A DNA stretch of 64,000 nucleotides from Lingula anatina (lineage: Eukaryota > Animalia > Brachiopoda). Within the stretch, counting starts at the first letter, position 1; each line of letters starts with the position of its first letter. The position numbers and the translations under genes were made by a program. The notes below the pieces were generated by a model. It searched no databases, was not told the DNA's origin, and was given only the letters and a program-made list of their open reading frames with translations. The stretch lies in NCBI GenBank assembly GCA_051362555.1, contig CM120641.1, forward strand, positions 18,290,001-18,354,000, in the 5' to 3' direction. Below, one piece after another: positions 17,501 through 63,781 of this stretch.

Positions 17501-20500
17501 TGAAACTTACAGAACTGATGAGTATTCATAATACGCAGGTCAAGTTCGAAAATCAGCATGATCAGGTCACTTTTAGGGAATTTATGCTGTTTTTTCACTT
17601 TTTTCAGCATATATGCAGCACTGATAACACGATAAGTGGAAAACCATTTTACCTTTTGACTTGAAACTTACAGAACTAATGAATATTCATAATACGCAGG
17701 TCAAGTTCGAAAATCAGCATGATCGGGTCACTTTTAGGGAATTTTAGTGTTTTTTCACTTTTTTCAGCATATATGCAGCACCGATAACGCGATAAGTGGA
17801 AAACCATTTTACCTTTTGTCTTGAAACTTACAGAACTGATGAATATTCATAATACGCAGGTCAAGTTCGAAAATCAGCATGATTGGGTCACTTTTAGGAA
17901 ATTTATGCTGTTTTTTCACTATTTTCAATATAAATCCAACACTGATAACACAATATAAGAAAAACGGATTGGCCAATTGTAATTATACTCACAGGAGTGG
18001 TCAATCTTACTAAGACGCAGGTTGAGTTCAAAAATCAGCATAATCGAGCCATTATTTTAGAAGTTATACTGTTTTTTCACATTTCCTCAGATTCAATTAT
18101 TAGGCATGTTAACAGTCTCATTATTTAACTAATAAGATGCCTAAAAGTGTTTGTTTGATATTTCCTGTATCTTTACAACATTGTTAGTTGATTATGTAAA
18201 AAACATGGTAAACTTGTTATCATGTATTGTGTAATAAAGTGTCAAAAATGGAAATAAACTCATATCATTGCAGTTTGTCAGATTCAATCATCCACTATGT
18301 TCAGAATCTCAGAATGGAGGAAATTGGACATTTAACACTGTTCTATTGATATTTTTCACATCTCATCAATCTTCTTAGTTGATCTTATAAAAATGGCAGT
18401 AACCTATTAATTTTGTTTTATGTTAAAAAAGTGTTAAAAATGGAAATAAATCCATTTCAGAATAGTGCAGTCTTGTTTACATTTTGGCATTTTTAAGGTG
18501 TGACTTTGAAGTTCCATCGGCCTAAAAACCTTTGTTAGTCACGTTTACTATTTGTCCATGATACTAATATTTTATTATTAAAAATTGATGGTTATTATGC
18601 TGTTAAACATTATGTAATATTGCATCAAAATTTGAAAAAAACATATTTTGGGCACTGCTCCCAAGATGACCATTTAAGAAAAACCATGTCACTTACTGTT
18701 CTCAAACAGTACAGTTAGTATGTACAGATGTGTCTGTACATATTGCCATCACCTGCGTCTGTCGTCGCCGTCGTTGCCGTCACTGTCACTGTCGCCGGCG
18801 CCATGCACTTTCATTGTAAACACGATAAGTGGAAGGCAGTTTTACTTTTTGGCTGTATATTTACAGAGCTGATGAATATTCATAAAATGCAGGTCAAGTT
18901 TGAAAATGAGCATGATCGGGCCATTAATGTAGAAGTTATGCTGTTTTTTCACTTTTCAGCATATATGCAACACTGTAAACACATTTCAAGGAAAACCGAT
19001 AAGCTTTTTGTTATGAAACTCACAGGAGTAATCGATCTTACTATAACGCAGGTCAAATTCGAAAATCGGCATGATCGGGCCACTATTTTAGTAGTTATGC
19101 TTTTTTTTTCATTTTTCAGCATATATGCAACACTGTAAACACATTTCAAGGAAAACCGATAAGCTTTTTGTTATGAAACTCACAGGATTAATCGATCTTA
19201 CTATAACGCAGGTCAAGTTCGAAAATCGGCATGATCGGGCCACTATTTTAGTAGTTATGCTTTTTTTTTTTCACTTTTCAGCATATATGCAACACTGTAA
19301 ACACAATATAAGAAAAACAGATAGGCCAATTGTCATTAAACTCACAGGAGTGGTCATTCCTGCTAAAACGCAGGTTGAGTTAAAAAATCAGCATAATCGG
19401 GCCATTATTTTAAAGAAATGCAGTTTTTTCACATTTCCTCAGATTCAATTCTTAGGCATGTAAACAGTTTCATTATTGAACTAATAAGATACGTAAAAGT
19501 GTTTGTTTGGCATTTCCTGCAATTTTACAACATTATTAGTTGATTATGTAAAAATGATGGTAAACTTGTTATCGTGTATTGTGTAATAAAGTTTCAAAAA
19601 TGGAAATAAACTCATATCATTGCAGTTTGTCAGATTCAATCATTCACTATGTTCAGAATCTCAGAATGGAAGAGATTGGACATTTAACACTGCTCTGTTG
19701 ATATTTTTCCCATCTCATCAATTTTCTTAGTTGATCATATAAAAACGACAGAAAACTGTTAATTTTGTTTTATGTTAATAATTGTTAAAAATGGAAAAAA
19801 AAAAAAAATTTCAGAACAGTGCTGTCTCGTTTACATTTTGGCATTTTCAAGTTGTGACTTTGAAGTTCCATGGGCCTGAAGACCTTTGCTAGTCACATTT
19901 TCTGAATATCCATAATACTAATATTTTATTATTAAAATTGATGGTCATTATGCTGTTAAAAATTATGTAATATTGCATCAAAATTTGGAAAAAAACTATT
20001 TTGGGCACTGCTCCCATGATGACCATTTAAGAAAAACCATGTCATTTACTGTTCTCAAACTTACAGGAAAGAAACATGGGACTAAAATACAGCTTCAGTA
20101 GGAAATACAGTCTGTTTGGTAATTCTTACTGCCATTTAAACAGTTATTTTGTGAAAATTTAATTTTTCACTTATTGGCATTTTCAAGGTTTGACTTTGAA
20201 GTTCCACGGGCTTGAAGACCCATGCTAGTCACATTTTCTGAAAATCCATGATACGTATATTTTATTATTAAAAATTGACGGTCATTATGCTGATAACCAT
20301 TATGTAATATGGCATCAGAATAGAAGAAAACACAATTTTGGGTGCTGCTGCCATGATGACCATTATGGGAAAACCATGTTACTTATGATTGCCAAACTTT
20401 CAAAAAAGAAATACAGGACTAAAATGCAGTCTGAGTTGGAAAAGTAGTCTAAGTGACTTCTTTTTCTGGAAGTTATACATTTTCAAAGTGTAAACTTGTC

Positions 20501-23500
20501 ACATATTTTAATTACATTGGTATTACCTGTTGAGGATAATTAAAATTTGATGTTGAATTTGCAGTTCAACATAATGTATTTTTGCATCAGAATTGACAGT
20601 AGCCTATTTTGTGCACAGTTATTTCCTGTTTTTTGTCTGTACATTTGACAGCTTTGCTGCCTTGTTTAAATCATTTTAGGTACATTTACCAATTCACTTC
20701 TTTTTATTATATCCAGTGAGACATTTTGTTAGCAAATCTGAATTATTTTAATAATAATATTTTGAAAAAAGTAACTACTTATTTTATCTGGCTACTATTT
20801 CAAAATGAAAACATTAGCTAATGTAAAAAATATACCAAGGCTGAAGTTGATGAAGTGCTATTAACCTTTGCTAAAATTAGAAAAAAATAAACATTTTTGA
20901 GGCCTATTCTTGCTTAATCAACAAAATGATCAGTAAAAAAACTGGTCTAAGTACTTGATCTTGAACTTTTGCATCCAAAAATATAGACAGCGTCACTAGT
21001 TAAAGATCATTTGCAATCTTCTAGAGAAATGAACTATTATGATTAATCAATTAGAGGCCTAATTATCCTCTCCCCAGGTGCCAGTGTTTAGGGTTTGCTT
21101 GTTTGCACCAAGCTAGATAAGCCTTGAAAAGCCCAGAAAATGTCAAAAAGACATTACTGTCTTTCATGGGAGATGAATTTCTCTGTCATTTTTGGCTGCT
21201 CTCATGCTCAAGCTAGACAACGTAGATATATGGGGTTAATTGTATCTTAAGCAAACAAAGGCTGGCCTTTCTAATGTCTGAGATCATATTTTGATGTGTT
21301 CAGCAGATAGTCATGGCAATAGAAAATACTTATGATGTCAGCAAATGATATTTACCTGTGGGGTGCCACACCCAGTTACTCAGCCAATTACCCAATTAAG
21401 AGGATTTTATGTTAAATTACTATGTTTTCTTTCATATTTCAAACATCTTTATGTAGTGATGGAAAGATCAATTAACTATAGGTTCACTTCCAGTTCAGTT
21501 GTGATAACTAACTTAGGGAGCCTTCACATTCAGACACTGTACCAGCTAGACCAATCCAACTAGAGTTTCTAGCTTAAGTGCCGTCAATGTAACCAGCTGA
21601 ATTGTCTGAGATGCCCCTCGAGCAGCTAGGGGTATTTTCTTGAGCATGCACTAGCTACCTCGGCAGACGCCCTGATTTTCACAGGATGCTAGAAACTCAC
21701 GTCGCTACTAGATGCTTACCTCTAACATTTTTTTTATTGACAGAGGTATGCTGATAGTAGAAAGGTGAGTTACCATGGTCCTCTAAAACTCACATACTGA
21801 AAAAATGAAGAATACATTTTGTCTGTGAATCTCAATATAACATCCAGATATCAGATGTGTTTAATCTTTAAATTTTTCAGATAATTACCTTAGAAGCACA
21901 GAATAAGAATTCCACTTTAAGATTAAAGAGTTCAGAAGAGCTTGCAGTGAGACATTCAACAGAGGTTAGTGTTTAATCTTCATCTACACATATTCACCAT
22001 TTTTGTCAGAGAGAAAATATTAAAGTTGTCCTATCCAGAATTTTTCTACGAAATTGAATTTTCCTTGAAAAATATATGCCGTTTCCTCCTACAAAAGAAT
22101 CATTGCTCATCCCCTTCCCTGCATTCTGAATCAATGTTTTATACCACTTCTCATTGCATAATTTAGTTCTAAATGACTGGCAAGTCACTTAGACTGCCAT
22201 GTCTTCCTGTACATTTCAGTAAGAAATATGAACATCAAATACTTTTATTTGAAGGGGTTGTCATTTGTAAGGTCCAGTGAAAAATAGATTAAAAACAAAA
22301 ACAATTTCAATTTATCATCAGGGGGCTGACAAAAAAAAAAAAAAAAAAAAAAAAATGCTGTGTTTATTTTTAATATCATATTTTCCTTTGTTTATTTTAG
22401 ATAGCTCAGCTGGAAAGATCAAGTCAAACAAATTTCAGTGATGTATGGCAGCAGATTAACTCATTAACTGTGAAGATCTCTCAGACCAATGCCACTTCCC
22501 AAATGCAAGCATCTTCCCTAAACCAGGTTTTACTTGCCATGAACAGCAGCATATATGAGGAGTTAATGACAATCAGTAAGATGTCTGGTCCACAGGGACC
22601 CAGGGGATACAATGGCTCTCAGGTAAGGAATGGTCATTTTTTTTCAGACTATGGGTGGCACATGCCAAAGACCATCTGATATTATTCTAAACAGAGGAAG
22701 GGAAGGCAGGGAACAGGATTTTTTTAACTAATTCATTTTGCTTATATAACATGCAGGCAGATTTTTCCTTAAAAGGAAATGCTCTCCAAATTACTGTAAG
22801 CACCTTCTTTTCTTTGTAGTTTATACCCCTTTTCCTTTCTGTCTTCCAAACACTTAAATACATAGTAGTTCTTGTTATATTCACACCTGTACCCTTTGAT
22901 ATCAGTCTTTCTAAAAATCTGCCGAGTTCCAAGTATTATACATGTCAAACCATATTTTTATATTTAATCTCATTAACCGTATGTTTTGGAAGTTTTGTAG
23001 TTAGTTGTTTCATTTACATGCACACTGTTTTAATAATCACACCTGTCTGTTGATTTTAACAATGTCAGTGTAACTTATATATTTGGTGCATTTAACAGCT
23101 GGGAGTTAGCAAAAGAAAAAAAAAAAGGCTACTGACTTGGAGAAGAAGTTTATACATTCAATTAATTTTAGGGTCCCCCTGGGGTTGGTGATCTTTCAAC
23201 TTGTAAATATAGTGTAAAGACGAGCACCAGTGATGTTTCAACACCTAGCAATAGTGTGGCTCCATTCCCACTGGAAAATGATTTGATGGTGAGTTAATTT
23301 CAATTTTCTTTTCTTGAAAAAGCTGACATAACCTCTGTCTTTGCGATAACAATGTCTAATAACAGTGAACATAATCTCTTTATGACAACATGACATAAAA
23401 TACTGAAAGTCATTAGTCTAAAATGTTGACCTTATGAAAAAAAGGAACTATTGCCAATGGATTTATTTCAATTGCTAATTTATCTATTTTCCACTGAAAA

Positions 23501-26131: not shown

Positions 26132-29059
26132 TTATTTCAGTTGTCCCTCATAGCTGACAATTTCATTGACCAAACGTCCACCTGGGCGGCCTGAGGCTGG
26201 AACCACACTCTGCCAGTATTCTTTATTGTTTCTGGAAGAAGAAGATTTACTCAAGATCATTATGAAATTGTTCCAAAGGTCTGAGGCAATTATTGACATA
26301 ATTTGAAATATAATAAAGAAAAATAAATTTTGAAAGTTTGTTATACATCCCTTTCCAAAAACTACTATTTATATTTTCAGATGGCAAAAATTAGAATAAA
26401 ACACATTTCCAAAATTGACATACAGTTGTATTTTACAAATAGTAAAAACAGTTGACTCTCTTACATAATGTTCAGCTGGGCTTTTATGTTGCCAATGGTT
26501 CAAAGGGTACCTGTTAGCTGTATCATCAAAATACATATTTCTTTGAAACTAGTGTTTTTATCTATTGCTACATGTAGTACAGTTGTGCTTTATTGCAGTA
26601 TGTGAGATTTTAGAACTCTGCGTTCAGAACTAAAAAACTGAAAATCAGAAAAAGTTTTAACTGATGTCATCATGAATTTTATTTACCTTGTGGGGGTGTG
26701 ATTACTTATAGTGGACTCTGCCATGCTATCACCCCAAACTCCATTTTTATCAGCTCCAGGTGGTCGCTTTCCTCCTCTTTCAGGAGCAAGCTGATAAATG
26801 TGAAATAACAATCAAACATGTCTTAATGCATGGTAATTTTTATTCCTGTATGGTAAAAGATATTCAACAAATATGGGGCAAGTAATTTAAGCATCATAGA
26901 TTAAAACACAGAAAAAAGCCAACAATGGATAATATTAAGTACTATTATATTATATTACAACATGCAACAGCACAAGAAAGAATATTCTAAATGAACCACT
27001 ATTATAGGTCGTTATAACTATAGCAATTGATTATATACAGTCATCATGATATGTTTGAAAGCAATCTTAGCGAATATCAGTTTGTGAATTTTTATAGTAA
27101 TTTTAGAGATTACATTACACAAACCTCTTCAGCAAGCTCTCGTATATGGTACGGCTCAAACCCACAGCACCCTCCAATATAGCGAACACCAATTTCATAT
27201 GCTTTACGCGCATAGTCTCGGCAATCCCACCTTGTCATCAAACGAGGTTCCATTGCTTAAATAAAGTTTCCAAATAAATTTGTTCCTCAACAAATACAAA
27301 TACATAAACAAACAGACAAACAAATAAATAAATTGTCTTTTCTGTTAGATTGCTACATACCTGTAAATAAATATAAAAGTGAAAAATTTCGTATCCTTAA
27401 TTACTATATGTTTAAAAAAGCATTTTAATTTTCATTATTTGCATGATTCAATGTGTTTAACTGCACAAGATATCAGCAGTTAAAATGTAATCAGAGGCAT
27501 ATCCTTGTGAAGCTATTGAGAATCACTATAAAGTAATAAATAGATAGATATGAAAAGTAAAATGTGTCACCTACCATATGGATATTCTGGGAGATCATAG
27601 TAGCCAATCACGTTATTGTCCACCTCTGGCACATGATACCCAAGAGGCTGGGTCATAAGATAGGGTGATAAGCCCTCTGCAGCTAAAGCATCCTTCATCA
27701 TCTTGATTGTCTTGAGTTCTGTGTGGTAGTCAAATGAACAGTTGATACCAACTATATCGCAACCTGCATTAAAAAAAGAAAAAAAAACTTAAAGAATCTC
27801 TACCAGTATTTCCTTTAGTCTGCTGTGACTGAGATATGATGTTGTCATAAGCTTTTAGAAACATCTTTTTTCTATCCGTGATCACATAATATTTATTGTG
27901 AGGTTTTTAAAAATAAGCATTTTCGAACATTCACCAGACAAAAACCTTCAGTGTGTAGAACACAGCATGTGATGAAAAGCATGTATAAATATAAATTATA
28001 AAAAATGTTCGGTTAGAAATCAGAGGTCCCAAAATGTATTCATGTAGCATGCAGGCATGACAAACAAATATGAACTTCATTAGATTGGGGGCCCTTTGTA
28101 ATTTGGTTGTATGATCAGATCTGCTACACTATTTCTTAGGGTCCATTCAGAATGAGTAAGGATGCAATAGCTATTGTACATTAACTCTAACGGGAGTCTC
28201 ACTGAATGTATTCAGATTTACAGACACATGCCTCCTCTAGTTTTCAACATACTTGTATAATCACCAGCTGCTCTGCATTCTACTAAACAGGAGGCAACAG
28301 GTTATAACGAAATCCTGTTTTTTCCAGTTTCTTTTTGATTTGCCTTACAGTTGGAATTTTTTAAGTAGTTATAATGAGTGCACAATTTTACCCTTTTTTG
28401 CCATTCTGATGGCACATTCTCCAGGGGGGACTCCCACTAGGTCTCCGCGGGGGCCTATTCTTAGTGTACAAGCAACTGGCATTCCACAAGACTTCATCAC
28501 TTCAATGGCCCACTCTGCCTCCTCAACATGACCAAAAAACTATAAGTGAGAAAATAAATGAATAAATGTTGTTTCAAAAGAAGTTTTATATTAGTACTCT
28601 TTTGCTTTTATCAAAACTTCCTTAAAGGATTTTATTTGTGTGTGTGTGTGTGTGTGTGTGTGTGGGGGGGGGGGGGGGAGAGAAGGGGAGGGGGGAGGAG
28701 GGGTTCATGAATAAAAATGAATAAATATAAAATAATGTAAAATTGTGCAAAATTATTCAAAATTAAAAAAGTTAATACAAACTGGTTTCATTATCTAGCC
28801 TCAAAAGAATGGTAGCTGAACCTAAATCTGTTACCTAAAACGCACCTCTCCCAGTAGAAAATCTACTTTGTTCTTGATAAATATGTCACACTGAGTCTGA
28901 AACTGTTCTTTAACTGCATCCTTGCCTTTTCCCTGTGTGTAGGTTGGGGTAGGAGACACTCCTCCACATACTAGAGTATCTGGGGATGTCCTCGCCACCT
29001 CCCAAACAATATCACATGCAGACTGGTTAAGATCCACAGCCTGAATGGATGATAAATAC

Positions 29060-29141
<82 letters not shown>

Positions 29142-31506
29142 GAAACACAACTTCATCTTGTGAAGAAAACCTATATCTTCAATTTGCTTTTAATTTTTAT
29201 GATTATTTGTATGTATCAAACCTTTTATATAGAGCTAGACATGCATCCACATTGCTAAACAAACAAACAAACAAACAAGGGAAAGATAAATAAAAGGACA
29301 GAAGAATAATTAATTAAAAAAATGGAAAAGGAAAAAGAAAGAAAAAGAAAGAATAGAATAGTAAATAGATGATGAGATACAGTGAATGTACAGCGCAGCA
29401 GGGTACTCATCATCTGGACTGCAGAGTGCTCAAAATCCATAGATCTGTTGTTTGTCTAATGTCTTATTAACATAAGAACAGCACAGATGAACAATTAGAA
29501 TCCATCCTAAATAATAAGTAAAACACAAAATAAAGCCTAGAGTCAGCAACTTTGAGACTTATGTATACTTACTGCATAATCCTTTTTTCCTTCCACTATA
29601 TTGAGTTTTCCATCAGTTGAGTAGAATGTGAAGGCTTGAAGGACATCTGCTCCTGCTCTTTGAAATTCTCTGTGCAACTGGCGAACTTATTGGATTTAGA
29701 AAAAATGTGACAGATAATTGTGTAGTTCGGTAAATATCAATTTTCTTTTTCTTATTATATTTCTAAGGAACTATTTTTGTCAAAACAGGTAAATTAAGCC
29801 ATGTTATATCTGGCTTGTGAGAGCAACTAAACAAAAATCTGAAAAATATGGGTGTAACACCTAAAGATAAACCAAGCCAATTAAATTGGGCAATGAAAGC
29901 TACACCCTCCCTTCCATCCCCCAGACCATCACTTAAGGGCGCATTCCCATAGATTTTAGATCGATCTATCCCGTGGGGAGTCTCACTAGATTACTGTCTG
30001 ATAATCCGGCTTAAATGTCCATCCCGCCTACTACAAGCTGTAAGGGGGTAATTAACTTTCGTGCCAGCTCGGCTGACAGCTATTTAGCGTGAACCCCCAG
30101 GGAGTTAGGTCGATCTAGTTGGATCGATCTAATCTCTGGGAATGGGGTCTAAGGCTCCATTCACATGGAAAATCTATTTTCTAAAAATCTATTTTCGGTA
30201 TCTTGTGATCACGGTCCGTGCCCTGGATACCCCATGGCGTAATTACTGGGAGCGCAAGCGAGTTACTTCCAAAGCTGTTATTAATTCTCGGCTGCGCTCG
30301 GAGGAGATTCTGATACCTTGATGCATGCGCAGTAGGAAGTTAGAAAGTAAATGGCAGTTGCTTTGAAAAAAGTGTTTGTGGATTTTGTGCAACAACAAGA
30401 CGAAGAAGATGAAGAAGCTATACACACGACAGACATGAGTGCAACCGTCATGATCTGATGGCAAGGGATGCGGCAACGGAGGATGAGATTTTATAGAATG
30501 CGAGCTAGGAGGCAAAAACAGTTGATGCTGCTTTTGTTGTCTTTGCTGATCGTTTCACCTGAGAGGACTATCTGGTCTCGGGAAAGGTAATGTTTGCTAT
30601 TTTTATCAACAAGAAATGTTTCAACAATGTGAGAGATACTACTGCGCATGTGTCAAGGTATCAGAATCTCTTCCGAGCACAGCCGAGAATTAATTACAGC
30701 TTTGGAAGTAACTCGCTTGCGCTGCCAGTGATTACGCTGCAGGGTATCCGGGGCACAGACCGTGATAACAAGATACCGAAAAATAGATTTTTAGATTTTT
30801 AGAAAATAGATTTTCCATGTGAACGGAACCTAAAACACCACCCAGCACAGCATGCTTGTTCTCCGTAGTATTAGAGATTACTACATGTACTATTAAGTTA
30901 TAATTACCAGCATCGGGGTGTTCAATGGCTGCCTCTGGTGTGAAAGGTCCCATTTTCAAGTAGCCTCTTTTTTCTAATGTTATAACATAGCTGCCATCTC
31001 CTATGACAGGACCTTCAGCAAGCCTCTCTAAAATGCCTTTCCTTTTGGGGACAGTGCAGAAGCCAAACTGAAACAGACAAAAAAAAAAATTAAATGACAT
31101 CCAGAACAAACAATTCTATTCAACAACTTTACTTTATGAAAATGACAAATTCAACAAATAAATGTCCTCGCATAGCACAAGTTACTGATTTTTCACACAG
31201 CATGTTATCCAATGAACCCATAACATCGACTTGTGACATACTGTACATGTACAACATAGACTTTGGAGAGGGTGGCTTTTAGACTTGCCCATCCAGGAGT
31301 CAAGTATTGAAACTACCAAGAATCAGCACAATGCACCATTGAAAGCTTACAGTAATGGCTGGTATTTGGCTGTCATAAAAAGTGTCTCTCTGCACATAAA
31401 AATAATGCGTAACATTTAAACTTACCTTTGAAATTCTGCAAATTCTGCCATAGTTTCCTCTCTGAACATATGTAGACAAAGACCTAGAAACTGTAGCTAT
31501 AGGCAT
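26132..31506 (-). CDS. BHMT: Betaine-homocysteine S-methyltransferase-like protein, paralog a (406 aa), with N-terminal extension resembling a mitochondrial transit peptide
   Basis: Exons (minus): 31506-31426, 31067-30908, 29685-29573, 29040-28846, 28539-28392, 27763-27575, 27255-27125, 26790-26687, 26231-26132 (TAA); 1221 nt, open. BHMT motifs [45 protein letters not shown] and [12 protein letters not shown] (three Zn-binding Cys), LAPERG, EYW..ASGRP. Confidence 0.95.
28637..28702. repeat. (TG)n followed by a G-rich run
   Basis: Direct inspection. Confidence 0.85.
29062..29137. repeat. (TA)n microsatellite
   Basis: Perfect TA run about 20 nt from a BHMT-a acceptor. Confidence 0.95.
29937..30149. 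mobile_element. PIF/Harbinger (Tourist)-like MITE family A, copy 1
   Basis: Imperfect TIRs (CATTCCCA.AGATT..AGATCGATC), flanked by TAA/TAA; further copies in the window. Confidence 0.75.
30153..30830. mobile_element. PIF/Harbinger-like non-autonomous element with ~180-bp inverted arms
   Basis: Left arm 30153-30335 is the reverse complement of right arm 30639-30830 (GGCTCCATTCACATGGAAAATCTA / TAGATTTTCCATGTGAACGGAACC); TAA on both sides. Confidence 0.85.
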
Positions 31507-31829
31507 CGCTAGAGTTGGAGATTGTTGAGCCTCTGCAGTAAGACCTAGTGATGACCTATATACGAATTAAGTACCTGTAGATAAGTCTTTGTACCTTAGT
31601 CCTACACTTTAGCTAGACATGTAGCTCGGCTATTACATAATGCTATCCATACTTAAGTGAACAGCTAGTTTTGTGAACTTGTTGCAAAGCGAAGGTGTTT
31701 TATTTACAGAATGATAAAGAAATGTCCTTGATCTTTATTCATTTAAACTTCTTTCTTCCTCATCTTTTTAGTTTCAACTCTCTTCCATTTAATCCTTTGT
31801 TGCCCAACCCACACTTACATGTAAAATGC

Positions 31830-31995
31830 CAGGGGCGTAACCAGGCATACGCACGGATGCACTGTGCGTACAATTTTTTGAGCCAACCATGATATTATTC
31901 TCCATAAATTCAGTGTATTTTTCACGGAATATAATCGTACCTGGGAATTTTCAAAATCTGTGCGTACAATTTTAAAAGGTCTGGTTACGCCCCTG
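31830..31995. mobile_element. Short MITE with 15-bp perfect TIRs (hAT-like CAGGGG ends) upstream of BHMT-a
   Basis: CAGGGGCGTAACCAG ... CTGGTTACGCCCCTG; internal duplicated CTGTGCGTACAATTTT; no clean 8-bp TSD visible. Confidence 0.65.
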
Positions 31996-32499
31996 CATGC
32001 TGACCACTCCAGTCAGATATTATAAAAAGTAAACATATGGAGGGATATACTCTAGACATGAGTTTGCATAAAGATGATAATAGCACTTTTTTGTAATTGT
32101 AATAGCACTTTTTTGTGAATGTTTAATACTTGTGTTATAATTTAGAATAAAGCCAATTCATCACTGGACAACGCCATTGCAAAAAGCAAATTTAATTGGT
32201 CTATTAAAACAGGCTGATATTGCTATGCAAAGTGACAATCATTATATTCTTTTTTAACTTGCTTTCTTCAGAAGAAGGCAGACTATTATTTGTCCCATGA
32301 ATCTTAAGTGATATCCTGTGGTCCACTGACCTTCACATCTTATATTATTCATCAGCAGAATGTCCAGATAAGGTTATCACTGTAAATAATAAAACACACG
32401 AACAAGAAATATATCCTGAGTATTTTGAAAATTTAACCATTTATTTCAACTAGGTGGATATTAGTACATGTATTTCATGGAAAAGGTAAATATAGCATT

Positions 32500-33207
32500 T
32501 ATGGTGGCAGTGCATGAAGTAGGTTTTTTTGTCAATTTTGATGCAATATTACATATGATTAACTGTATAATTACCATGAATGTTTAATTACTATTAATGA
32601 CATGGACACTTACAAAATTTGGTTACCATTAGGCTTCATGCCTGTGGGAGTTCCAAGTCCCACACTGAAAATACCAATATGTGAAAGATAAAAAATTGAC
32701 AAAAATGGATAAAAAAAAGGGGGGGGGGGGACAATTAGACTGCTTTTCTAACTCAGGCTGCATTTTAGTCCTATGTTTCTTTCCTGTAAGTTTAAGAAGA
32801 GTAAGTGACATGTTTTTTCTTTCATGGTTACTATGGAGGCAGTGCCCAAAATAGAGTTTTGCTTCAGTTTTGAAACAATATTACAAAATGCTTAACAGCA
32901 TAATGGCCATCAATTTTTTTATTATAAAATAAAAGTAGCATGGATATTCAGAAAATGTGACTAGCAAAGGTCTTCAATCCCATGGAAGTTCCAAGTCATA
33001 TATGCTAAAAAATGTATAAAGAGCATACAAAACAGCATAATTTTGAAAAATGGCCCGATCATGCTGATTTTCGAACTCGACCTGTATTTTATGAATAGTC
33101 ATCAGTTCCATTAATTTGAAAACATTTTTCCACTTATCGTAACAGTGAAAGTGCAGGGCAAAAGATGCAGGTAACAGATATATTTACAGACATATCTGTA
33201 CATAAAA
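32500..33207 (-). mobile_element. Degenerate, shortened third copy of the HINE-like element
   Basis: Head TTTATGTACAGATATGTCTGTA at 33207, one decayed monomer (GGTCGAGTTCGAAAATCAGCATGATCGGGCC) and tail blocks shared with 38800-39500. Confidence 0.7.
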
Positions 33208-35146
33208 GGTAAATGGTGTCAGGCAATTATGTGTACTGTATTCAGTAAGTCAACGATCATTAGTTAATATTTGTTAAATTAAGTGTGTCCTAGTTTGCAA
33301 GTACTTGCTAACTCATGACTTGTCTATCTAGTTTTACTGGTATAGAGAAATTTGATAGCAGCACAGGCAAACGTTCTATCTAACACCTATTCAAAGACAA
33401 ACTCTGATGTTGTTTTTGAAATTTGTTACTTGACATTCAACTCCATTGAAAATAAGGTTAATGTTTAGAATAGTACCAGTATGCTGTCCTGCTACCTTAT
33501 TGCGCTTATCAGTGGCAATCCTTGTTCAATTTGCTGAGGGAGCTAGATCTTAAGGCCCTTACTTTTGGAGATAACTTACAAATACTAATTGTATATTTGT
33601 TGACACACACTGAGGTAGATAGTGAGAGTAAAAGGTAAGATTTTATTACCAATTTCAAGAATCGGCTGGTGTAAATGCTGAAAATGTACGTCAATCTGAA
33701 ACACCAACAGTACAAAAATTACAGGTTTTATGAACTGTGCCACTTGACATCTTTTGCTTGACACAACTGACTGCATTTCCCAATGATGTGAATGTTATTC
33801 AATAGAGGGAAAAGATGCACCTTTTCATCTGACTCAGTAGGTAATATTTGCTCAACTTGAGACTTGTCGCAGAAATGATTTTCCAATAAAAAGGTGATGA
33901 ATTTGGCAAAATAAAAGATCTACATAAGATCATGCCATCTCATTTGTATGACTTAAACTGAACAAACAAAAATACCTTATTTCCATTACAGTTAAATGTC
34001 TAGTCAAAGTTTGGAACATTTCTTTTTGATGGAAGTAAAAGACACGGGCAGAAGTAATTTTAAATTCAATTTTATAATAAAAAGAATAAAATAATAAAAA
34101 CTGAACACTTCCAAAATATTTATTATTGATTGTACAATTTGAATACATTGGAGGTACATATGTAAGTTAAAAGCCTCACCAGAAGGTGGCCTATTAGAGG
34201 AACACAGCCCAAAATTGAGACACCAGAGCATGCTCAGCTGGCTGCACAACCCAACCAAACCCAACTCTCTTTTTCAGGGTAGTTACATGTATGAACTACC
34301 CATCATTAACTGTTGGCCAGCACCTTAAGAAACTGCTGGTGCAATCACCTGATAATATAAAGTGATTACTGGAGTCAAATGATCACGACAGTGTATTATA
34401 AGCTTTAGATATTATGCACCCACCAAACGTAGTAAACTTAGCATTACATGGTGTAATTATATAACAACTACCATTCATCTAACCTAGTGTGCTGAAAAAT
34501 GAATTGCTTTTAGTTTCTAAAAACTTTATCATATGTAGTTATGTGTATAACTGTAAAAAGAAATGTAAAGAAATGAGCAGATATTGGTAATGAACACAGT
34601 ATACAGTGCATCTGTTCTTGAATGTATCTGCTTATACTGTGTACATTTTTATGTAAATGTGCTTTCCATAACCAGCGACATATTGTCATGCTTCATGAAT
34701 AAAAACTTCTGTCATGATTGTTAGAAGCATTCAGAGCCATTGCAGCACTTTTAAACTTACTCTAGCTCTATTTCTTATGAACTGCACTTCTCTCCTGCCT
34801 TTAAAAATTATTTGGACACAATGAAATCTTCAATTTTTTTTTCAGTTACGCCATTGATTTATATTTTCCTAATTAAAAAAAATGCACATTTACTAAAGTT
34901 ATTAAAAAAATCAAACAGTGGTTAATACTGGTAGTATTAAATTTTAAGAATGATCCATGTAACAATTTGACTGCATCCAATTTTTCTATCATCAATATTT
35001 TTCTACAGGGATTAATCTTGTGTAACAGTTACATTTTGCAATACATTTAAAACATCAACAGTTTTATCTTTATTGATTGAACATGAATAGATTGCAATGT
35101 TAGTTGTCAAATGACACTGGAAGCTCTTCTGTTAAAGTTTTCTCTC

Positions 35147-38100
35147 TTATTTCAGTTGACCTTCGTAGGCAACAAGTTCATTGGTCAGACGCCCACCTGG
35201 TCTTCCTGAAGCTGGGATCACCTTCTCCCAGTATTCTTTAGTGTGCCTGATTGTAGAATGTCATATCAATCAATAAAATAATAATGATGATTATAAAATA
35301 CATAAAAAGAAATTTCACTGAAATCCCAAGCAAGATGTTTGGTGAATTTATATGATAATATAATGAGATGTTTGTTATCTACCTGATATTTGTACATAGA
35401 TACAAACATATATGTATAATTCATCACTACTTTAACAGCCATGGTAATATATGGGTTAAAATAATTGGAAGTATCAGAAAGTTGCCAATATTGAGGGTCT
35501 GTCTCGGGGGCAAAGATATATACAGATAAACATTTAAGTAGAAAAGTACAGAAATAATATGTTGCTTTACCTTATCGCTACATGAGGTGTTATAGTGGAC
35601 TCTGCCAAGGCATCTCCCCAGTTAGAATTTTTGTCAGCTCCTGGTGGTCTGATTCCACCCCTTTCTGGAGCCAGCTTTGTAAAAAAAAAAAAAAAAAAAA
35701 TAATAATAAAATAAATGTTTCTATATTATTCTATATCACAGTTATTCCTTTCTGTGTCACCATATGTAAAATGAGATTGTGATGAAGATATGCATTAAAC
35801 ATACTCCGTGCAGTCTTAAAGGACTTTTATGCACAGACATGCATTTGAATAGGCAGAAATATGCATACGCAAACAGATTCGCATAAAAGTCATTGCAAGA
35901 CAAAAACCTTATAATTTCCAGAGTAAAATAAAAATATTTTATTCTAAAAATTGGATAGAAAATAAACTTAAACATACTTCTTCTGCAACCTCCCTCATAT
36001 GGTAGGGCTCAAATCCACAGCAACCTCCTATGTAACGTACGCCAAGTTCATAGGCTTTGCGAGCATACTCACGACAGTCAAAACGCACCAGCAAACGAGG
36101 TTCCAGGGCTGTAACATTGAGCATTGTGTATTAGGTAAATGGTGTTGGAATGTAAATGCTTTCTCATCACGGTTTTAAATTAAATTAACATAAACAAAAC
36201 TTGAGTGTTACTTGATGGGATTTAACATCCCCTGTCTGAAATAGACAAAACTGGTGGAATGAAAATGAACAACTGATTTGATAACGTTTATTAGACAACA
36301 ATTTAATGGACAAACCAAAATCTATACTTCACAGCGATCTAGTAAATGAAATTATACTGGCCCAATCTTTTTGAATTTAAAGAAACTTTCTTAAAAGATC
36401 TCTTTGACTGTGTTCCAATAAACTCATCATACTAGTAGGAATGATCTCACTCTGCAGGACTTCTGGCTTACTGTAATCAGCTAAATTGTCTGGCACGTCC
36501 CCTTGAGTAACTATGGGGTAAATGACTATCGTTAATTACCCCCTAGCAGTTTGAGAAGGTGTGCCAGACATTTAGCTGCTTACAATGAATACAATTTAGC
36601 GAGAATCCCCGCAGAGTTAGATCGATCCAGCTAATACGATGGGTTTGTGGAAACGCAGCCTTTGACATTTTGTGTAGTTTTTTTGATAGACTGATTACTA
36701 TGTGAATGAATTTGATTTTCCATAATTTAAAATAAACATATGCTTTAGGATTATCAAATTTGTCAGTAAAACCTACTTGTAGGAAGCATGGAAAATTTTC
36801 TGATTTTTGATACCAAGCACCATTTATTCAAAAATTCCCTGTATCATAACTATAATATTATAAATATATCTGAGGTAAGACCAACAAGGTATGAAATACA
36901 TAAACATATTAATAAATTAGTATTGTTTAAGTTTTGTTAAAGAAACATAATTGAAATCCTTTGCCTTTCAATATCTTACCTAGAGGGTACTCCGGGAGAT
37001 CATAGTAACCCACAATGCTATTCTCCACCTCGGGAAGGTGATATCCAACAGGCTGGGTCATAAGATATGGTGTCAAGCCCTCGGCAGCCAAAGCATCCTT
37101 CATGATCTTGATTGTTTTAAGTTCTGTGTGGAAGTCAAAGGAGCAGTTGAGGCCCACTATGTCACACCCTGAATAAAGAAATTTTCTTAACTTTCACTAA
37201 AATCAAACTATTTTATACATTAATTTTACACGTATAAAGAGGAGTTTGAAAAAAAAGATATATATAGATATCTTCTTATGCATCTATACAAATATTATAT
37301 ATCTATTTCTTACTTTTACATCGTAGTTATAAGTCATGTATCAAAGCTGTAACATCTTCCTTATAATATACATACAGCACACTGGAAATAAAAAATTACA
37401 CATAGGTGCCAGTCTCACAAATGATGCTACAAATGTTTTAATGTACAACTTAGAAATAACTTTGTGAAAAAATAATACATTTTTTAATTTTTCTTACCTG
37501 CTCCTTTAAATATATTACTGTATATCACATACCAGTATGTATGCACTAAGATGAGTAAATAGCAATAATGCTGGGAGTCTATTTGCATAGAGTACTACAC
37601 TTTGATTGGTAAATACATACAGTTGACCTAGTGCTATTGGTCTAAAAGGGTTTTATGTACAACTGGTTCATAATAAATATAGTTGACATAAATTTAAGGT
37701 ATATGTAAATACCCTACTGATATAAATTGTTCTACAGTTTTACTAAAAGATGAACTGAATGCCCTTAAAATTTTTGGTAACACTCAGTTTAGTTAGCTGA
37801 AATTCTGTTGTTAAAACCAGTTTTTGACAGTTTGTGAAGTGGCTGCATGCCCATCCAGGGGCACTATTACATTATAGGTACTTAACCAAGCAACAGTACT
37901 CTGAAGTTGAACACACCTAGATTTAAATATACAATTCAGTATAACTAAAAAATCAACTTTTTCTGAAAATTTCAAAAACTTTAATTACCAAGTTGCAATA
38001 CATTCAAATTGCTGAGAAATTTTTTATCCATGCCTCTAGAAAATAAAAATATACACGTAGAATTAAATTAATTAGCCAAATCTTATAGATCATAATCTTT

Positions 38101-41100
38101 CAACCAGTTTGGATAGGGTATAGCCTCAGGCTGGTGATTAAGAGGAAATTGCTGAAATTTCTTGGAAAATCATTATTATTTTGTTTTGTAGATGTCTAAT
38201 CTGCATTGTATATTACCTGCTCGGGCCATTCTGACAGCACATTCTCCAGCTGAAACACCATCCAAATCCCCGCGAGGCCCAATTCTGAGCGTACAAGCCA
38301 CTGGCATACCACAAGTCTTCATTGCTTCAATGGCCCATTCTGCCTCCTCCACATGGCCAAAAAACTAAAAAGTTTCAAACCATAGGTAGTCATCATGAAA
38401 GACCATTCCAGTAATCCACAGTTACATTACTATGCAGATAAAAACTTGGAAATACTAAATGCAGTACTGTCATAAAACTACAAACAACATCAATATTTGT
38501 GTGTAAAAATAATACATTGCAATTGGTGAATAGATTTTGTAACTTTGTAGTGCATGTTTAAACCTCAGTGAAGAGATATTTTAAAAAATCACATGGGAAT
38601 GGATATTTTCCAAATGATTCAGATCAAAATTATGAAAATATCAGTGTTAGATATAACAAGGCAGCAAAGCTGTCAAATGTACAGACAAAAAACAGGAAAT
38701 AACTATGCACAAAATCGGCTACTGTCAATTCTGATGCAACAGTACATTATGTTAAACTGCAAATTCAACATCAAATTTTAATTATGCTCAACAGGTAATA
38801 CCAATGTAAGTAAAATGTGTAACAAGTTCACACTTTGAAAATGTATAACTTCCAGAAAAAGAAGCCAATTAGACTGCTTTTCCAACTCAGGCTGCATTTT
38901 AGTCCTGTATTTCTTTTTTGAAAGTTTGGCAATCATAAGTAACATGGTTTTCCCATAATGGTCATCATGGCAGCAGCACCCAAAATTGTGTTTTCTTCTA
39001 TTCTGATGCCATATTACATAATGGTTAACAGCATAATGACCGTCAATTTTTAATAATAAAATATACGTATCATGGATTTTCAGAAAATGTGACTGGCATG
39101 GGTCTTCAAGCCCGTGGAACTTCAAAGTCACACCTTGAAAATGCCAATATGTGAAAAATTAAATTTTCACAAAAAAACTGTTTAACTAGCAGTAAGAATT
39201 ATCAAACAGACTGCATTGTCTACTGAAGCTGTATTTTAGTCCCATGTTTCTTTCCTGTAAGTTTGAGAACAGTAAGTGACATGGTTTTTCTTAAATGGTC
39301 ATCATGGGAGCAGTGCCCAAAATAGTATTTTTTTCAAATTTTGATGCAATATTACATAACGTTTAACAGCATAATGACCATCACTTTTAATAATAAAATA
39401 TTAGTATTATGGATATTCAGAAAATGTGACTAGAAAAGGTCTTAAGGCCCATGGAACTTCAAAGTCACAACTTGAAAATGCCAAAATGTAAACAAGACAG
39501 CACTGTTCTGAAATGTTTTTTTTCCATTTTTAACAATTTATAACATAAAACAAAATTAACAGTTTTCTGACGTTTTTATATGATCAACTAAGAAAATTGA
39601 TGAGATGGGAAAAATATCAATAGAGCAGTGTTAAATGTCCAATTTCTTCCATTCTTCCATTCTGATCATAGTGAATGATTGAATCTGACAAACTGCAATG
39701 ATATGAGTTTATTTCCATTTTTGACACTTTATTACACAATACACAATAACAAGTTTACCATCATTTTTACATAATCAACTAATAATGTTGTAAAGATGCA
39801 GGAAATGCCAAACAAACACTTTCACGTATCTTATTAATTAAATAATGAAACTGTTAACATGCCTAAGAATTGAATCTGAGGAAATGTGAAAAAACGGCAT
39901 TTCTTTAAAATAATGGCCCGATTATGCTGATTTTTGAACTCAACCTGCGTTTTAGCTGGAATAACCACTCCTGTGAGTTTAATGACAATTGGCCTATCTG
40001 TTTTTCTTATATTGTGTTTACAGTGTTGCATATATGCTGAAAAGTGAAAAAACAGCATAACTTCTACAATAATGGCCCGATCACGCTGATTTTCGAACTT
40101 GACATGCGTCTTATGAATATTCATCAGCTCTGTAAATATACAGCCAAAAAGTAAAACTGCCTTCCACTTATCATGTTTACAATGAAAGTGCATGGCGCTG
40201 GCAACAGCGACAGTGACGGCGACGATGGCGATGCAGACGCAGGTGATGGCAATATGTACAGACACATCTGTACATAGTTACTGTACTGTTTGAGAACAGT
40301 AAGTGACATGGTTTTTCTTAAATGGTCATCATGGGAGCAGTGCCCAAAATAGGTTTTTTCAAATTTTGATGCAATATTACATAATGTTAAACAGCATAAT
40401 GACCATCAATTTTTAATAATAAAATATTAGTATCATGGATATTCAGAAAATGTGACTAGCAAAGGTCTTCAGGCCCATGGAATTTCGAAGTCACAACTTG
40501 AACATGCCAAAATGTAAACAGGACAGCACTGTTCTGAAATTTTTTTTCTCCCCATTTTTAACAATTTTTTAAACATTAAACAAAATTAAAGGTTACTGCC
40601 ATTTTTATACGATCAACTAAGGAAATTGATGAGATGGGAAAAATATCAAGACAAAAGTGTTAAATGTCCAATTTCCTACATTCTGAGATTCTGAACATAA
40701 TGAATGATTGAATCTGACGAAGTGCAATGATATGAGCTTATTTCCATTTTTGAAACTTTATTACACAATACATGATAACAAATTTACCATCATTTTTACA
40801 TAATCAACTAACTATGTTGTAAAGATGCAGAAAATGTCAAACAAACACTTTTACGTATCTTATTAGTTAAATAATGAGACTGTTAACATGCCTAAGAATT
40901 GAATCTGAGGAAATGTGAAAAAAACAGAATAACTTCTAAAATAATGGCCCGATTATGCTGATTTTCGAACTTGACCTGCATTTTAGTAAGATTGATTACT
41001 CCTGTGAGTTTCATGACAACAGGCCTATCGGTTTTCCTTGAAATGTGTTAACAGTGTTGCATATATGCTAAAAAGTGAAAAAACAACATAAATTCTACAA

Positions 41101-42775
41101 TAATGGCCCGATCACGCTGATTTTCGAACTTGACCTGCGTTTTATGAATATTAGTCAGCTCTGTAAATATAAAGCCAAAAAGTAAAACTGTCTTCCACTT
41201 ATGGTGTTAACGCTGAAAGTGCACGGCGACGGCGACATGATCGGCGACGGCGACGACAGACGCAGGTGATAGCAATATGTACAGACACATCTGTGTCTGT
41301 ACATAAAAATATTTTGTTTGCAGTGACTGCAAGGCAATTCATTTGGTATTCTTTACAAAAACATTTGAATGCCACACTATGACACTAAATAACATATTGG
41401 TAAAAGCTGTATTCATTGACTGGTGAACATTTAAATGTTTTACAGAAAAACACTCACCTCACCCAGTAGAAAATCTACTTTATTTTTGACAAAGATCTCA
41501 CATTGGTTTTGAAACTGTTTCTGAACAGCAGCTTTACCCTTCCCTTGGGTATAGCATGGAGTGGGGGACACGCCTCCACAAACCAGAGTGTCTGGCTTGG
41601 TTTTCGCCACCTCCCAAACAATATCACATGCAGACTGGTTAAGATCTGCAGACTGGAAAGAAACAATGATTTAAGATTGGTTTACAAAAGGTACATTTGA
41701 GAGGTCAAAAATCTTCAGTAAGCATGGGGAAAGTCCTTCAATGTCTTTGTATGTAAATTAGTTATGAAAATGGCAGTCTGAATGAAATGAATTTGGAGGG
41801 TGCAAAAAAAAAAAAAAAAAAAACCCAAGCAAGCAAGCAATAATAAATTGCCAAACCAGCTTGAGCCTCCCTTGTATAGTTTTAAAAATACCCCTTACTC
41901 TAAATGGGGGAGGGGGGTATCGTGTTAAGGTGAAAGGCACTTACTGTAAATACTTTTCCTCCCTCAGAAGTGCTAAGTTTCCCATCGGTTGAGTAAAAAG
42001 TAAAAGCCTGCAGTACATCTGCTCCTGCTCGCAGAAAATCTCTATGCAGTTGCCGAACTATTTGAGAAACAGATTTGAACACACATAATATTATAAGTAT
42101 TTACATAATTTACGTTGAGCTTTCCTGTTGTATGTCCTCACTATACCATCTTCATTCAATTAGCAAAGGAAATTATGATGTAAAAGTCTTAATTTCATAA
42201 CTTTCAAGGACATTTATTAGCCTGCACTTAGTGCTTGGGATAGTTGTATGAGTATTGGTTTTGCCCTGTATTAGAACTTGATAATAATTATTTAAGTTTT
42301 ATGTTCTGGTGCCTGCCTTCCAAAATCATATTATTAAAAAACATTTAATTAATTTAAATAATGGAACAGTCTACACACAACATGAGTTTCAGAGTCAATA
42401 AGTTTTTCAAAAAACAAAGGGAAACCCACACGACACTGAGAGCTTACAGAAAACCCAGTCAAAGACAATTTCAGTTGAGCAGTAATGGTCAAGTTGACCT
42501 GGTGCCTTGTTCTCATTTGATAATTATGCTCTAATAAACCTGTTAGATAGATAAACTTTGCATTAATCATTTATTCTGTGTTGTAATACCAGAATATGGG
42601 GCAACTTTCATCAGTGGCTGGATTAAGGTGGTATGTTTATAATTGAATTCCCTTCCGAGGTCAATGTTGTTTGGTTTTAATTCAAAATGAGGGAAATATA
42701 TGATAAGATATATACCTGGATATTTTCCAAACTTTGTGCACAAATTGTCCTGTATCAAATTTGACATGATTAAAA

Positions 42776-42838
<63 letters not shown>

Positions 42839-43075
42839 CCATCTTCCAAACACCTACTCAATATGTTTAAAACTTCTGGTTTTGACTTCACATGAAATCA
42901 TCCTGTTCTCATGAAAAAAAAAAAAAAAATTACCTGCATCTGGATATTCAATAGCAGCCTCTGGTGTAAATGGCCCTGCCTTTACATAGCCCCTTTTTTC
43001 TAGTGTAATGACATAGCTCCCATCTCCTATCACTGGCCCCTCAGCCAACCGTTCTAGGATGCCCTTCTTTCCCAT
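35147..43075 (-). CDS. BHMT: Betaine-homocysteine S-methyltransferase-like protein, paralog b (373 aa, starts [10 protein letters not shown]; presumably cytosolic)
   Basis: Exons (minus): 43075-42934, 42057-41945, 41652-41458, 38364-38217, 37168-36980, 36108-35978, 35674-35571, 35246-35147 (TAA); 1122 nt, open. Exon sizes 113/195/148/189/131/104/100 are identical to paralog a. GLNC and GGCC Zn ligands intact. Confidence 0.95.
36470..36660. repeat. Degenerate relative of MITE family A
   Basis: Shares GTTAATTACCCCCT, AATTTAGCG.GAA.CCCC and AGATCGATC blocks; similar relic at 44470-44610. Confidence 0.5.
38655..41309 (-). mobile_element. Second, inverted copy of the same HINE-like element, in a BHMT-b intron
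   Basis: Reverse complement of 17026-20666 with the same two heads (41309, ~40276) and same 3' end (AACAAGGCAGCAAAGCTGTC at 38655), but only 2+2 monomers. Confidence 0.85.
42775..42837. repeat. (TAAA)n microsatellite
   Basis: Direct inspection; a similar (TTTA)n at 54675-54717 forms the acceptor tract of ADSS exon 2. Confidence 0.9.
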
Positions 43076-45258
43076 TGCCACCTACTAAAAATGTGAAAAA
43101 TGTTATCTTGCAAGTGTTGATTGAATGCAGCAGATACCTTTCTGGAAACCTCCAATTCCATATTATGCATTCATATTTAATCAACGTGTTACCATTTAAT
43201 TTGCCTCAGTCTTGCATAAATGTTTCATTGTCATTCTATGTGTAGATATGGCTGATACAGCTAGAGGGATAACTTAAATCTGATAAGAAGAAACTCTCAC
43301 CTGTTGCACAACAATAAGAATGTAAGTCACTTGAATTTACTGTTGCACTCATATTGATCCACTTAGATAAAGCATATAGCATAAGAAATTTGTACAAAAA
43401 GAAACTTTAGTTTTGGAACTCAACATGTTAGTTTTTTTGTTATGCTTTGCAGGTGAAGTGGAAGACTGAGTTGGGTCAAAGCCCTTTGTTGATGAAAATA
43501 AATATACTGGAATTCAGTACAATTATAAAATGAAGTCAAAGTCATTCGGATGGTTCACAACATCTTGTATTATCAACAATTAAATAAATGAAAGTTGTTC
43601 AGAACTGCACAAACATTTAGAAAAGCTTAAATGACCCACTAGCTCTTAATTGGAAAACTGTTCAAAATTTCCGTATGTAAAGTGTAGCATGCACATGTCT
43701 TCTTAACTAATTCCAATGCAATACTTTGCACATGACAAGTTACTGGAAGTACATGCATATTTGGTATTGTTAAATGAATAGAACTCCCTTCACAATGGGA
43801 AAAATTATTTGACCTGAGAGCTGAAGAGAACAAGCAATTTCTAGATGAAATCTTTATGCACTGAGATAAACGTTATCATTTAATTATCTGATTGCATGTT
43901 CAAGTGGCTACTTATATTTGCTTCTGCAATAAGAGAAAGTAAATTACTGACACAACAGACAGCTATTGCATAGTTAAATGTTGACACTTAAAAGCATATT
44001 TGAAATAAAATTTATAAAAAAATCTGAACACGTAGATTTTTAAACTTGACTTTAGAAGGACCTTAAATTTTAAAGAAAAACATAAACCAATAAATAGCCT
44101 ATTCTTATGCAAAAGTATTCACTAGCATATCCACTAGCACTTACCAATAGATATAAGATATGCTCGAGTGTCTGCAAATGGACGTCTGGCTCTATGAAAA
44201 CAAAGTTTCTGAAAGCATCAGTTTCTGACCTGAGCTAGGTATTTCAAACTGGGGGCATACTGTATGCAGATAAGAAAGGGACAAATTCAGTTCAAGCTGT
44301 TGTGTGGAGTATAAACAAGGCAGAGTTCAAATATAGGACTTAACCAAATGAAAAGCAAGTTGCATATATCAACACTGCAAAGTATTGTTATTTAAAGACT
44401 CATTTACTCAGGCCCCGTAGTCAGCAATTTCAAAAGGGTATTTCTTTTAGGTCTACTTCTACACAAAAGTTAATTACCTCCCCCCTCCCTCCGCAGCCTC
44501 AGTAAGGGTAACAGACATCTAAGCTGCTTATAGGTTGATTGCAATTTAGCAAGAATCCCTTCAGAGATAGATCCATCCACAGTTAGTGCAATAGGGTCTG
44601 GGAATGGTCCCTTATATTAGACAGCAAAGCTGACAACTATGTAAAAATCAAAACACCCAATAATGGGATAATGTAGACTTTCAAAAGGAACCTTTATTTA
44701 AAACTTAAGAAGTCACGCAGTAAATTTTAAGTTAAAGAAAAATACAGTTTGACAGTTATAGGAATAGACATTTTGGAAGGTGACAACATTGACAGATAAA
44801 GTGATCAGAATATACACAGACGCATAAGAATAAACTGTGAACATAACCCGGCCTACTTTCACATTGCATATATTAACCTACATGTTATGCCTACACACAT
44901 CAGTTATGCAAGGGTTATTGCCCTTTGCACTGTACCTTTTTGCGAGTCACTAAAAGTGTCAAATGGACAGGCAAATATTGTCAAAACTAACAGTAGTGGG
45001 ATTAAAACAGTCTGTAAATGATGAGTTTATTGGTTCTAGCACAATTAAGTATGCACAACAAGCTATGAATTAGATTTAATCCCTCACTTAGAGATTATTC
45101 CTTATGAAACTGTCAGTCATCGTAGATTGATCTGACTAAGCCAGGACTCGGGCTAAATGCAATCAGAATAAAAAGATTAAACAGTAGACAAGTGCGTTTC
45201 TAATGCACTCATATAACCACCAACTCTTCTGGAGTTTACTTCTCTCCAACAGCACTTA

Positions 45259-51829: not shown

Positions 51830-52098
51830 CCACGTTGCCGTTCACCTCAGCCAACGAGATAATTAACCCCTAGTAAAATTTTTACCTCCTTTTGGTGCAT
51901 ACTGACACAGCACGGTCGCGAGAGAAAAAGTACTTTCACCGCCTAAAATATTCCGTTTCCATCTTTTTCCATGCAAAAAACATTAACCAGCATTGGCCTA
52001 CTACAGTCCTCGTTTCATATATCGGTCACATATCGCGCGTGAAATATATACGTACTTCCGGTGTGCGCAGGAAATCTGGATTTCGCGCGAAAGTGGGG

Positions 52099-52100
<2 letters not shown>
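51830..52100. promoter_or_regulatory. CpG-rich promoter of ADSS with E2F-like palindrome and ETS-like site
   Basis: Marked local CpG enrichment against a CpG-poor background; TTTCGCGCGAAA at 52081-52092; ACTTCCGG at 52054-52061; ATTGG near 51992. Confidence 0.65.

Positions 52101-63781
<11,681 letters not shown>

Follow-up and report, generated by a model that had tools for sequence, protein, structure and literature searches.

BHMT-a, one of two tandem BHMT-like genes on the minus strand of the 64-kb stretch of Lingula anatina DNA analysed here (the window, GC content 34%), probably encodes a BHMT-like enzyme that is targeted to mitochondria, with import as a predicted step. Such a location had been proposed in a sequence-only reading of the same DNA; the proposal has gained from spliced reads and from the recurrence of leaders in other phyla, and import itself is still a prediction. 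More tentatively, and with a little less than even confidence, marine invertebrates (brachiopods, lancelets, hemichordates and echinoderms) may hold an unrecognised, lineage-expanded BHMT-like clade with a remodelled donor pocket, whose members would have been placed repeatedly in the matrix by alternative first exons or dedicated paralogs. This wider reading includes homocysteine remethylation in the matrix, with osmolytes other than glycine betaine as its supply. The second gene of the window is BHMT-b, and no third BHMT copy was detected in the 64 kb by tblastn.

Gene models and transcripts

BHMT-a consists of nine minus-strand exons, separated by GT-AG introns, which form a single open frame of 406 codons. 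Exon 2 used as a query retrieved the L. anatina RefSeq protein XP_013406704.1 (406 aa, 100% identity). The whole exon model differs from this protein only at residue 13, where Tyr is replaced by Phe in RefSeq, which bears out the 406-aa model of the sequence-only reading. The underlying base change is present in 3 of the 4 junction reads of run X2; the three variants in exon-2 reads are all synonymous, the leader variant being the Tyr to Phe change. The features of BHMT-a are the following.

31507 to 31546, minus strand: 5' UTR of exon 1, 5' end approximate (read depth)
31426 to 31506, minus strand: coding exon 1, ATG and 27 codons of the leader (RNA reads, donor score, RefSeq P0001)
31172 to 31269, minus strand: alternative segment spliced to exon 2, upstream end approximate (3 reads, run X2)
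30908 to 31067, minus strand: exon 2, end of the leader and beginning of the catalytic barrel, without Met (frame, RNA)
29573 to 29685, minus strand: exon 3 (frame; the exon 2-3 junction is seen as a loose end in 3 reads of run X2)
28846 to 29040, minus strand: exon 4, ending at Glu183, human E159 (frame, alignment)
28392 to 28539, minus strand: exon 5 (frame)
27575 to 27763, minus strand: exon 6, with Cys241, human C217 (frame, alignment)
27125 to 27255, minus strand: exon 7, with Cys325-Cys326, human C299-C300 (frame, alignment)
26687 to 26790, minus strand: exon 8 (frame)
26132 to 26231, minus strand: exon 9 and stop (frame)

The claim that BHMT-a lacks a start codon at the site of the BHMT-b ATG proved correct: exon 2 (31067-30908) contains no in-frame ATG, and an intronic stop shortly upstream closes the frame. 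The first Met downstream of the leader is residue 66. Because a start at Met66 would delete the conserved Asp51-Gly52 (human D26-G27), present in each of the 45 divergent-clade sequences compared, BHMT-a requires an upstream coding exon. Between 35000 and 31068, three candidates leading from an ATG to a phase-0 donor score at least 5/7. The exon at 31506-31426 is the best of them and the only one with 7/7 scored consensus positions at its phase-0 donor, and it supplies the sole BHMT-a start codon before residue 66.

RNA reads were taken from 7 of the 9 listed Lingula runs, with 6-30% of each run used and runs X5 and X6 left out. Stranded reads on the minus strand span the junction 31426/31067, with 4 reads from 3 starts in run X2 and 1 read in run X3, altogether 5 reads from two runs of one study. 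The junction that had been put forward for checking is thus found in RNA, and the upstream exon splices at phase 0 into the open 406-codon frame, as had been predicted. The spliced reads and the sole upstream in-frame ATG point to a translated N-terminal extension. Coverage upstream of the ATG extends to about 31546, and the closest ATG upstream of the start lies at 31620. Expression is low: run X8 gave 1 read and run X9 none over the region, runs X1 and X7 showed weak coverage of exon 2 with an exon 1 depth of zero, and in run X4 neither exon was covered. In a broader mapping over 29300-36200 (runs X1, X4, X7 and X3) repeats dominated, and no exon junction was among the joints displayed.

A second junction, 31172/31067, was detected with 3 reads in run X2 only and uses a GC donor. 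Because the segment upstream of it contains six ATGs, every one of them out of frame, and an in-frame stop at 31195-31193, this splice form is likely non-productive.

Intron 2 of BHMT-a carries a long inverted repeat at 30143-30840 (arms 30192-30335 and 30639-30782, 90% complementary), which looks like a MITE-type element. It adjoins a dispersed repeat at 29969-30117, and both draw many RNA reads from other copies.

The sister copy, BHMT-b, has the following features.

35147 to 43081, minus strand: BHMT-b, 8 exons, 373 aa from the internal Met (exon frames)
43081-42934, 42057-41945, 41652-41458 and 38364-38217, minus strand: exons 1-4 (frames)
37168-36980, 36108-35978, 35674-35571 and 35246-35147, minus strand: exons 5-8 (frames)
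50602 to 50727, minus strand: upstream exon, in frame in RefSeq isoforms X1 and X2 (predicted RefSeq models)
51146 to 51196, minus strand: further upstream exon, start of isoform X1 (predicted RefSeq model)

The ATG of BHMT-b stands 6 nt after a phase-0 splice acceptor, and the model differs from RefSeq P0123 by one residue. RefSeq holds the 373-aa isoform X3 and two longer ones (X1 and X2) with in-frame upstream exons, both of which are open in the window sequence. The long extensions are basic (+10 and +6), have 3 acidic residues among their first 30, and pass neither the strict nor the loose presequence rule introduced below. BHMT-b had been called an untargeted sister. Isoform X3, which has no extension, agrees with this description, and the two predicted forms with basic extensions speak against it; BHMT-b is likely to be mainly cytosolic, less certainly than had been stated. 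BHMT-a and BHMT-b are identical at 302 of 370 residues with a dN/dS of 0.093, and BHMT-a is under purifying selection. The possibility of a BHMT-a pseudogene was rejected on the intact frame and this ratio.

Upstream, the additional BHMT-b exons stand head to head with a plus-strand adenylosuccinate synthetase gene (identified by Pfam PF00709 in 51877-52437), about 1 kb apart (51196-52110), and the two genes possibly share a promoter. Elsewhere in the window, an uninterrupted frame of 446 codons at 60392-61729 (minus strand) is hydrophobic in its N-terminal half and matches no Pfam family. Exon-like frames at 15217-22676 (plus strand) combine a hydrophobic segment, a short run of Gly-X-Y and sequence resembling a coiled coil, which suggests a type II membrane collagen-like protein; they gave no Pfam match at the curated cut-off.

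The leader of BHMT-a and leaders in other phyla

The first 30 residues of BHMT-a comprise 4 Arg, 1 Lys and 6 Ser or Thr, with no Asp or Glu and no hydrophobic core, and the net charge is +7 across 36 residues. The composition is therefore as originally described, i.e. rich in Arg, Ser and Thr, free of Asp/Glu and without a long hydrophobic core. Residues 8-14 hold one Tom20-type and one R-3-type pattern, as we take these motifs to be defined; this R-3-type pattern, at residues 8-12, is the sole one, and none is found near the mature start. The helical moment of 0.65 is not above that of composition-matched shuffles (p 0.27 and 0.24). In the structure model residues 1-26 remain below pLDDT 50, in a part with few aligned rows. 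To score leaders, a strict presequence rule (no acids, at least 3 Arg, at least 4 Ser/Thr, helical moment of at least 0.5, low hydrophobicity) and a looser one were used; under these rules, which are home-made and were set after the leaders had been seen, out of 605 random ATG frames taken from the window 3 pass the strict and 31 the looser version. One frame in 605 is as extreme as the BHMT-a leader. By itself, the leader is a plausible, not a textbook, presequence.

Other signals were considered as well. A secretory signal was ruled out by the missing hydrophobic core and a PTS2 peroxisomal signal by the absence of the pattern, and the C-terminus is not of the SKL type, as we presume this motif to be defined. 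An Atlas feature search with leader residues 1-36 gave no usable match; the whole protein matches BHMT clusters only.

Relatives provided the more informative comparison, since it is their leaders that carry the mitochondrial argument, the Lingula leader taken alone being just plausible. These leaders come mostly from gene predictions or transcript ORFs and were read from the models alone. Extensions of at least 20 aa occur in 13 of the 105 canonical-type BHMTs fetched at full length, and 0/13 pass either rule. Among non-canonical relatives 20 of 66 are extended to this degree; the strict rule is passed by 8 of these and the loose one by 11, counts that include BHMT-a itself (P0001). The strict passes include paralogs of Branchiostoma belcheri and B. 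floridae as well as Glandiceps, Ptychodera and Holothuria, and the loose ones B. lanceolatum and Amphiura. Cluster members fetched later (51) added 13 extended proteins with 2 strict and 9 loose passes, 5 of the 9 belonging to one cluster counted before. Both later strict passes are X1 isoforms, of an Antedon and a Ptychodera gene, for which the matching X2 isoforms are short; the B. lanceolatum gene has a similar pair of long X1 and short X2 isoforms. Counting one leader per gene group, with kinship between groups uncorrected, 12 of 21 divergent extensions versus 0 of 11 canonical ones have no Asp/Glu in the first 25 residues (Fisher p 0.0016). The p-values for the leaders are optimistic, given a post hoc rule and homologs that are related and partly redundant.

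A conserved leader exon, which the sequence-only reading had suggested seeking in related genomes, was not found: the leaders cannot be aligned to that of Lingula, and none of 14 other leaders showed similarity to it at p below 0.05 (p 0.10-0.95). Of 21 metagenome BHMT loci found, the two examined (L001 and L002) have no in-frame leader. Three environmental or transcript BHMT-type proteins outside these counts (P0347, P0354 and P0464) start, by eye, with presequence-like leaders, so that the trait is not confined to the divergent clade; P0347 has a canonical pocket despite its leader.

In a tree of 42 rows chosen from the matches (LG+G4; BHMT2 was left out of the trees), the divergent sequences of invertebrates group in a single clade, separate from canonical BHMT (support 100/99). 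BHMT-a and BHMT-b fall inside this clade as sisters (100/100), and the canonical Lingula protein P0155 falls outside. The pairs with and without a leader in Glandiceps and Amphiura are each sisters too (100/98). On this tree the leader label requires at least 10 changes, and an 81-row tree, calculated as a quick tree only, shows the same pattern. A topology that unites the 9 dedicated paralogs with leaders in one clade was rejected (p-AU 0.000114). Either leaders gained repeatedly or an ancestral dual-targeted gene split repeatedly would fit; we lean towards splitting, given that three groups have predicted single genes with both isoforms. Within the divergent clade, one 90% cluster (that of P0143) contains 11 proteins of the nemertean Tubulanus polymorphus, 10 of them on a contig of identical length and none with a leader, which amounts to a large local expansion.

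Three other accounts of the leader have to be weighed against mitochondrial targeting. It could be translated and neutral, with loss of the Met rescued by an upstream ATG in the former 5' UTR and the protein left in the cytosol. We regard this as unlikely. The loose rule is indeed passed by 31/605 random frames, the amphipathicity is no greater than composition predicts, the 14 other leaders are dissimilar in sequence (p 0.10-0.95), and BHMT-b shows that upstream exons can stay open in frame. However, the strict rule admits 3/605 random frames only and a single one is as extreme, canonical BHMT extensions are never similar (0/13), and acid-free leaders recur in three deuterostome groups.

It is decidedly unlikely that BHMT-a is shared between compartments, whether by poor or partial import of the long form or by a short cytosolic protein from the second splice form. 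Such a short protein would need a non-AUG or internal start, the second form offers six out-of-frame ATGs and an in-frame stop and appears in one run only, and a start at Met66 would drop the Asp51-Gly52 kept in 45/45 sequences; this is set against a rival junction with 3 reads versus 4 in run X2 and against relatives that make long and short isoforms from a single gene. Targeting to the secretory path, the peroxisome or the nucleus appears highly improbable, as there is no hydrophobic core, no PTS2 pattern and no SKL-type C-terminus, even if basic residues cluster at 35-37 and a nuclear pool of mammalian BHMT is described in the available text of PMC11942099. Mitochondrial targeting remains the preferred reading.

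Active site and methyl donor

BHMT-a matches Pfam PF02574 (E 2.4e-39), and its structure model (pLDDT 85.9) was matched by Foldseek to human BHMT 4m3p (E 7e-43). In the accessible part of PMC9713302, ten substrate-site residues (D26, G27, G28, W44, F76, Y77, E159, Y160, F261 and F267), three Zn cysteines and three interface residues of BHMT are named. Human numbering was transferred to BHMT-a via an amphibian BHMT. The Zn ligands C217, C299 and C300 are kept as C241, C325 and C326, and D26, G27 and E159 as D51, G52 and E183; F76, Y77 (Tyr102) and the interface residues R346 and W352 are also kept. Changes are found at G28 (S53), W44 (F69), Y160 (F184), F261 (Y287) and F267 (Y293), i.e. at 5 of the 10 substrate-site positions in BHMT-a and likewise in BHMT-b, and at the interface residue H338 (S365).

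All ten substrate-site residues are invariant in the 24 of 24 canonical sequences aligned. In the divergent sequences D26, G27, E159, C217, C299 and C300 are kept in 45/45, and of the 45, 44 have Phe at position 160 and 39 Tyr at 261, and Ser is found at 28 and at 338 in 37 each. The tail after the Cys-Cys motif measures 66-92 aa in the 45 divergent sequences versus 105-113 aa in 18 of 21 measurable canonical ones. Database names for the divergent-clade proteins are only 'BHMT 1(-like)' or 'BHMT2-like'. Judged from these residues, BHMT-a would be a homocysteine S-methyltransferase with an intact zinc site that belongs to a divergent invertebrate clade of BHMTs; the residues for zinc and homocysteine are conserved, and the donor side of the pocket is changed. 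Compared with canonical BHMT (EC 2.1.1.5; PF02574; 4M3P, 1LT8, 8D45; rat 1UMY) it shares the barrel at about 55% identity and has a shorter C-terminus, an N-terminal leader replacing the Met and changed pocket residues. We infer that it works like BHMT yet is not a canonical member, with a donor range that may be changed or widened.

The betaine demethylation first envisaged for the pair is consequently weakened, as both copies are non-canonical with 5/10 pocket residues different and Lingula keeps a canonical BHMT, P0155. Because of these pocket changes, the shortened C-terminus and the separate canonical enzyme, glycine betaine is a doubtful methyl donor for BHMT-a; we would put it somewhat behind a different betaine or a sulfonium compound such as DMSP. 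BHMT2 uses S-methylmethionine and lacks part of the C-terminal helix, according to the available text of PMC11942099. The divergent clade is likewise short at the C-terminus. The fragments P0369 and P0417, which we take to be of BHMT2 type, share Ser 28 and Thr 32 with BHMT-a, whereas they have Ser 77 and keep W44 where BHMT-a has Tyr 77 and Phe 44; the Ser at 77 seen in BHMT2-type sequences is absent from BHMT-a (Tyr102).

A separate short BHMT paralog of teleosts (P0228, P0255, P0259, P0261, P0273, P0284 and P0291) is nested among vertebrate BHMTs. It carries Tyr at position 261 and in most cases Phe at 160, and its C-terminus is shortened, in parallel to the changes of the invertebrate clade.

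Proposed mechanism and its meaning

In the proposed mechanism, the spliced first exon would add a leader serving as a cleavable presequence, by which the protein would enter the mitochondrial matrix, presumably through Tom20 and TIM23 and with cleavage of the leader. In the matrix, BHMT-a would remethylate homocysteine to methionine, with a methylated osmolyte as methyl donor, likely one different from glycine betaine or used in addition to it. We know of no matrix source of homocysteine, which is the main gap in this mechanism. The C-terminal helix of BHMT holds the tetramer (PMC11942099, in part), and BHMT-a may be a dimer rather than a tetramer. As for its history, a tandem duplication in the Lingula lineage is likely, after which copy a would have lost the internal Met and become obligately targeted and copy b would have kept it. 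Because crinoid, acorn worm and lancelet have single genes with long and short isoforms, the a/b pair may represent the two halves of a dual-targeted gene.

Cytosol/mitochondrion pairs that arise by alternative first exons or duplication are known from SHMT1/SHMT2 and MTHFD1/MTHFD1L. Like the a/b pair, those of the SHMT1/SHMT2 type provide one activity in two compartments with a presequence present or absent; unlike them, the BHMT arrangement seems to have arisen or been resolved repeatedly. In animals, remethylation of homocysteine is regarded as a cytosolic process, and in the literature searched, with subscription papers mostly outside it, no description of a mitochondrial animal BHMT or of such a pair was found. 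Human BHMTs are described as predominantly cytoplasmic in the accessible part of PMC13137591. In excerpts of PMC7240134 and PMC5557254, coral BHMT is discussed with no localisation given, and the former mentions that some BCCT betaine carriers of corals bear mitochondrial-like motifs. Dimethylglycine dehydrogenase is a matrix enzyme (PMC5082570, in part). A use for methionine made in the matrix is questionable in view of the statement, in the available text of PMC8773781, that mitochondria lack MAT and import SAM; small amounts of MAT-alpha1 in mitochondria are mentioned in that of PMC11942099.

The wider pattern in marine invertebrates and the altered pocket are of more interest than the Lingula exon itself. 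If true, a BHMT-like enzyme in the matrix would mean that mitochondria have a homocysteine pool and make methionine locally, next to dimethylglycine dehydrogenase, and the altered pocket would be a concrete candidate for how marine invertebrates may tap osmolytes other than glycine betaine for methyl groups.
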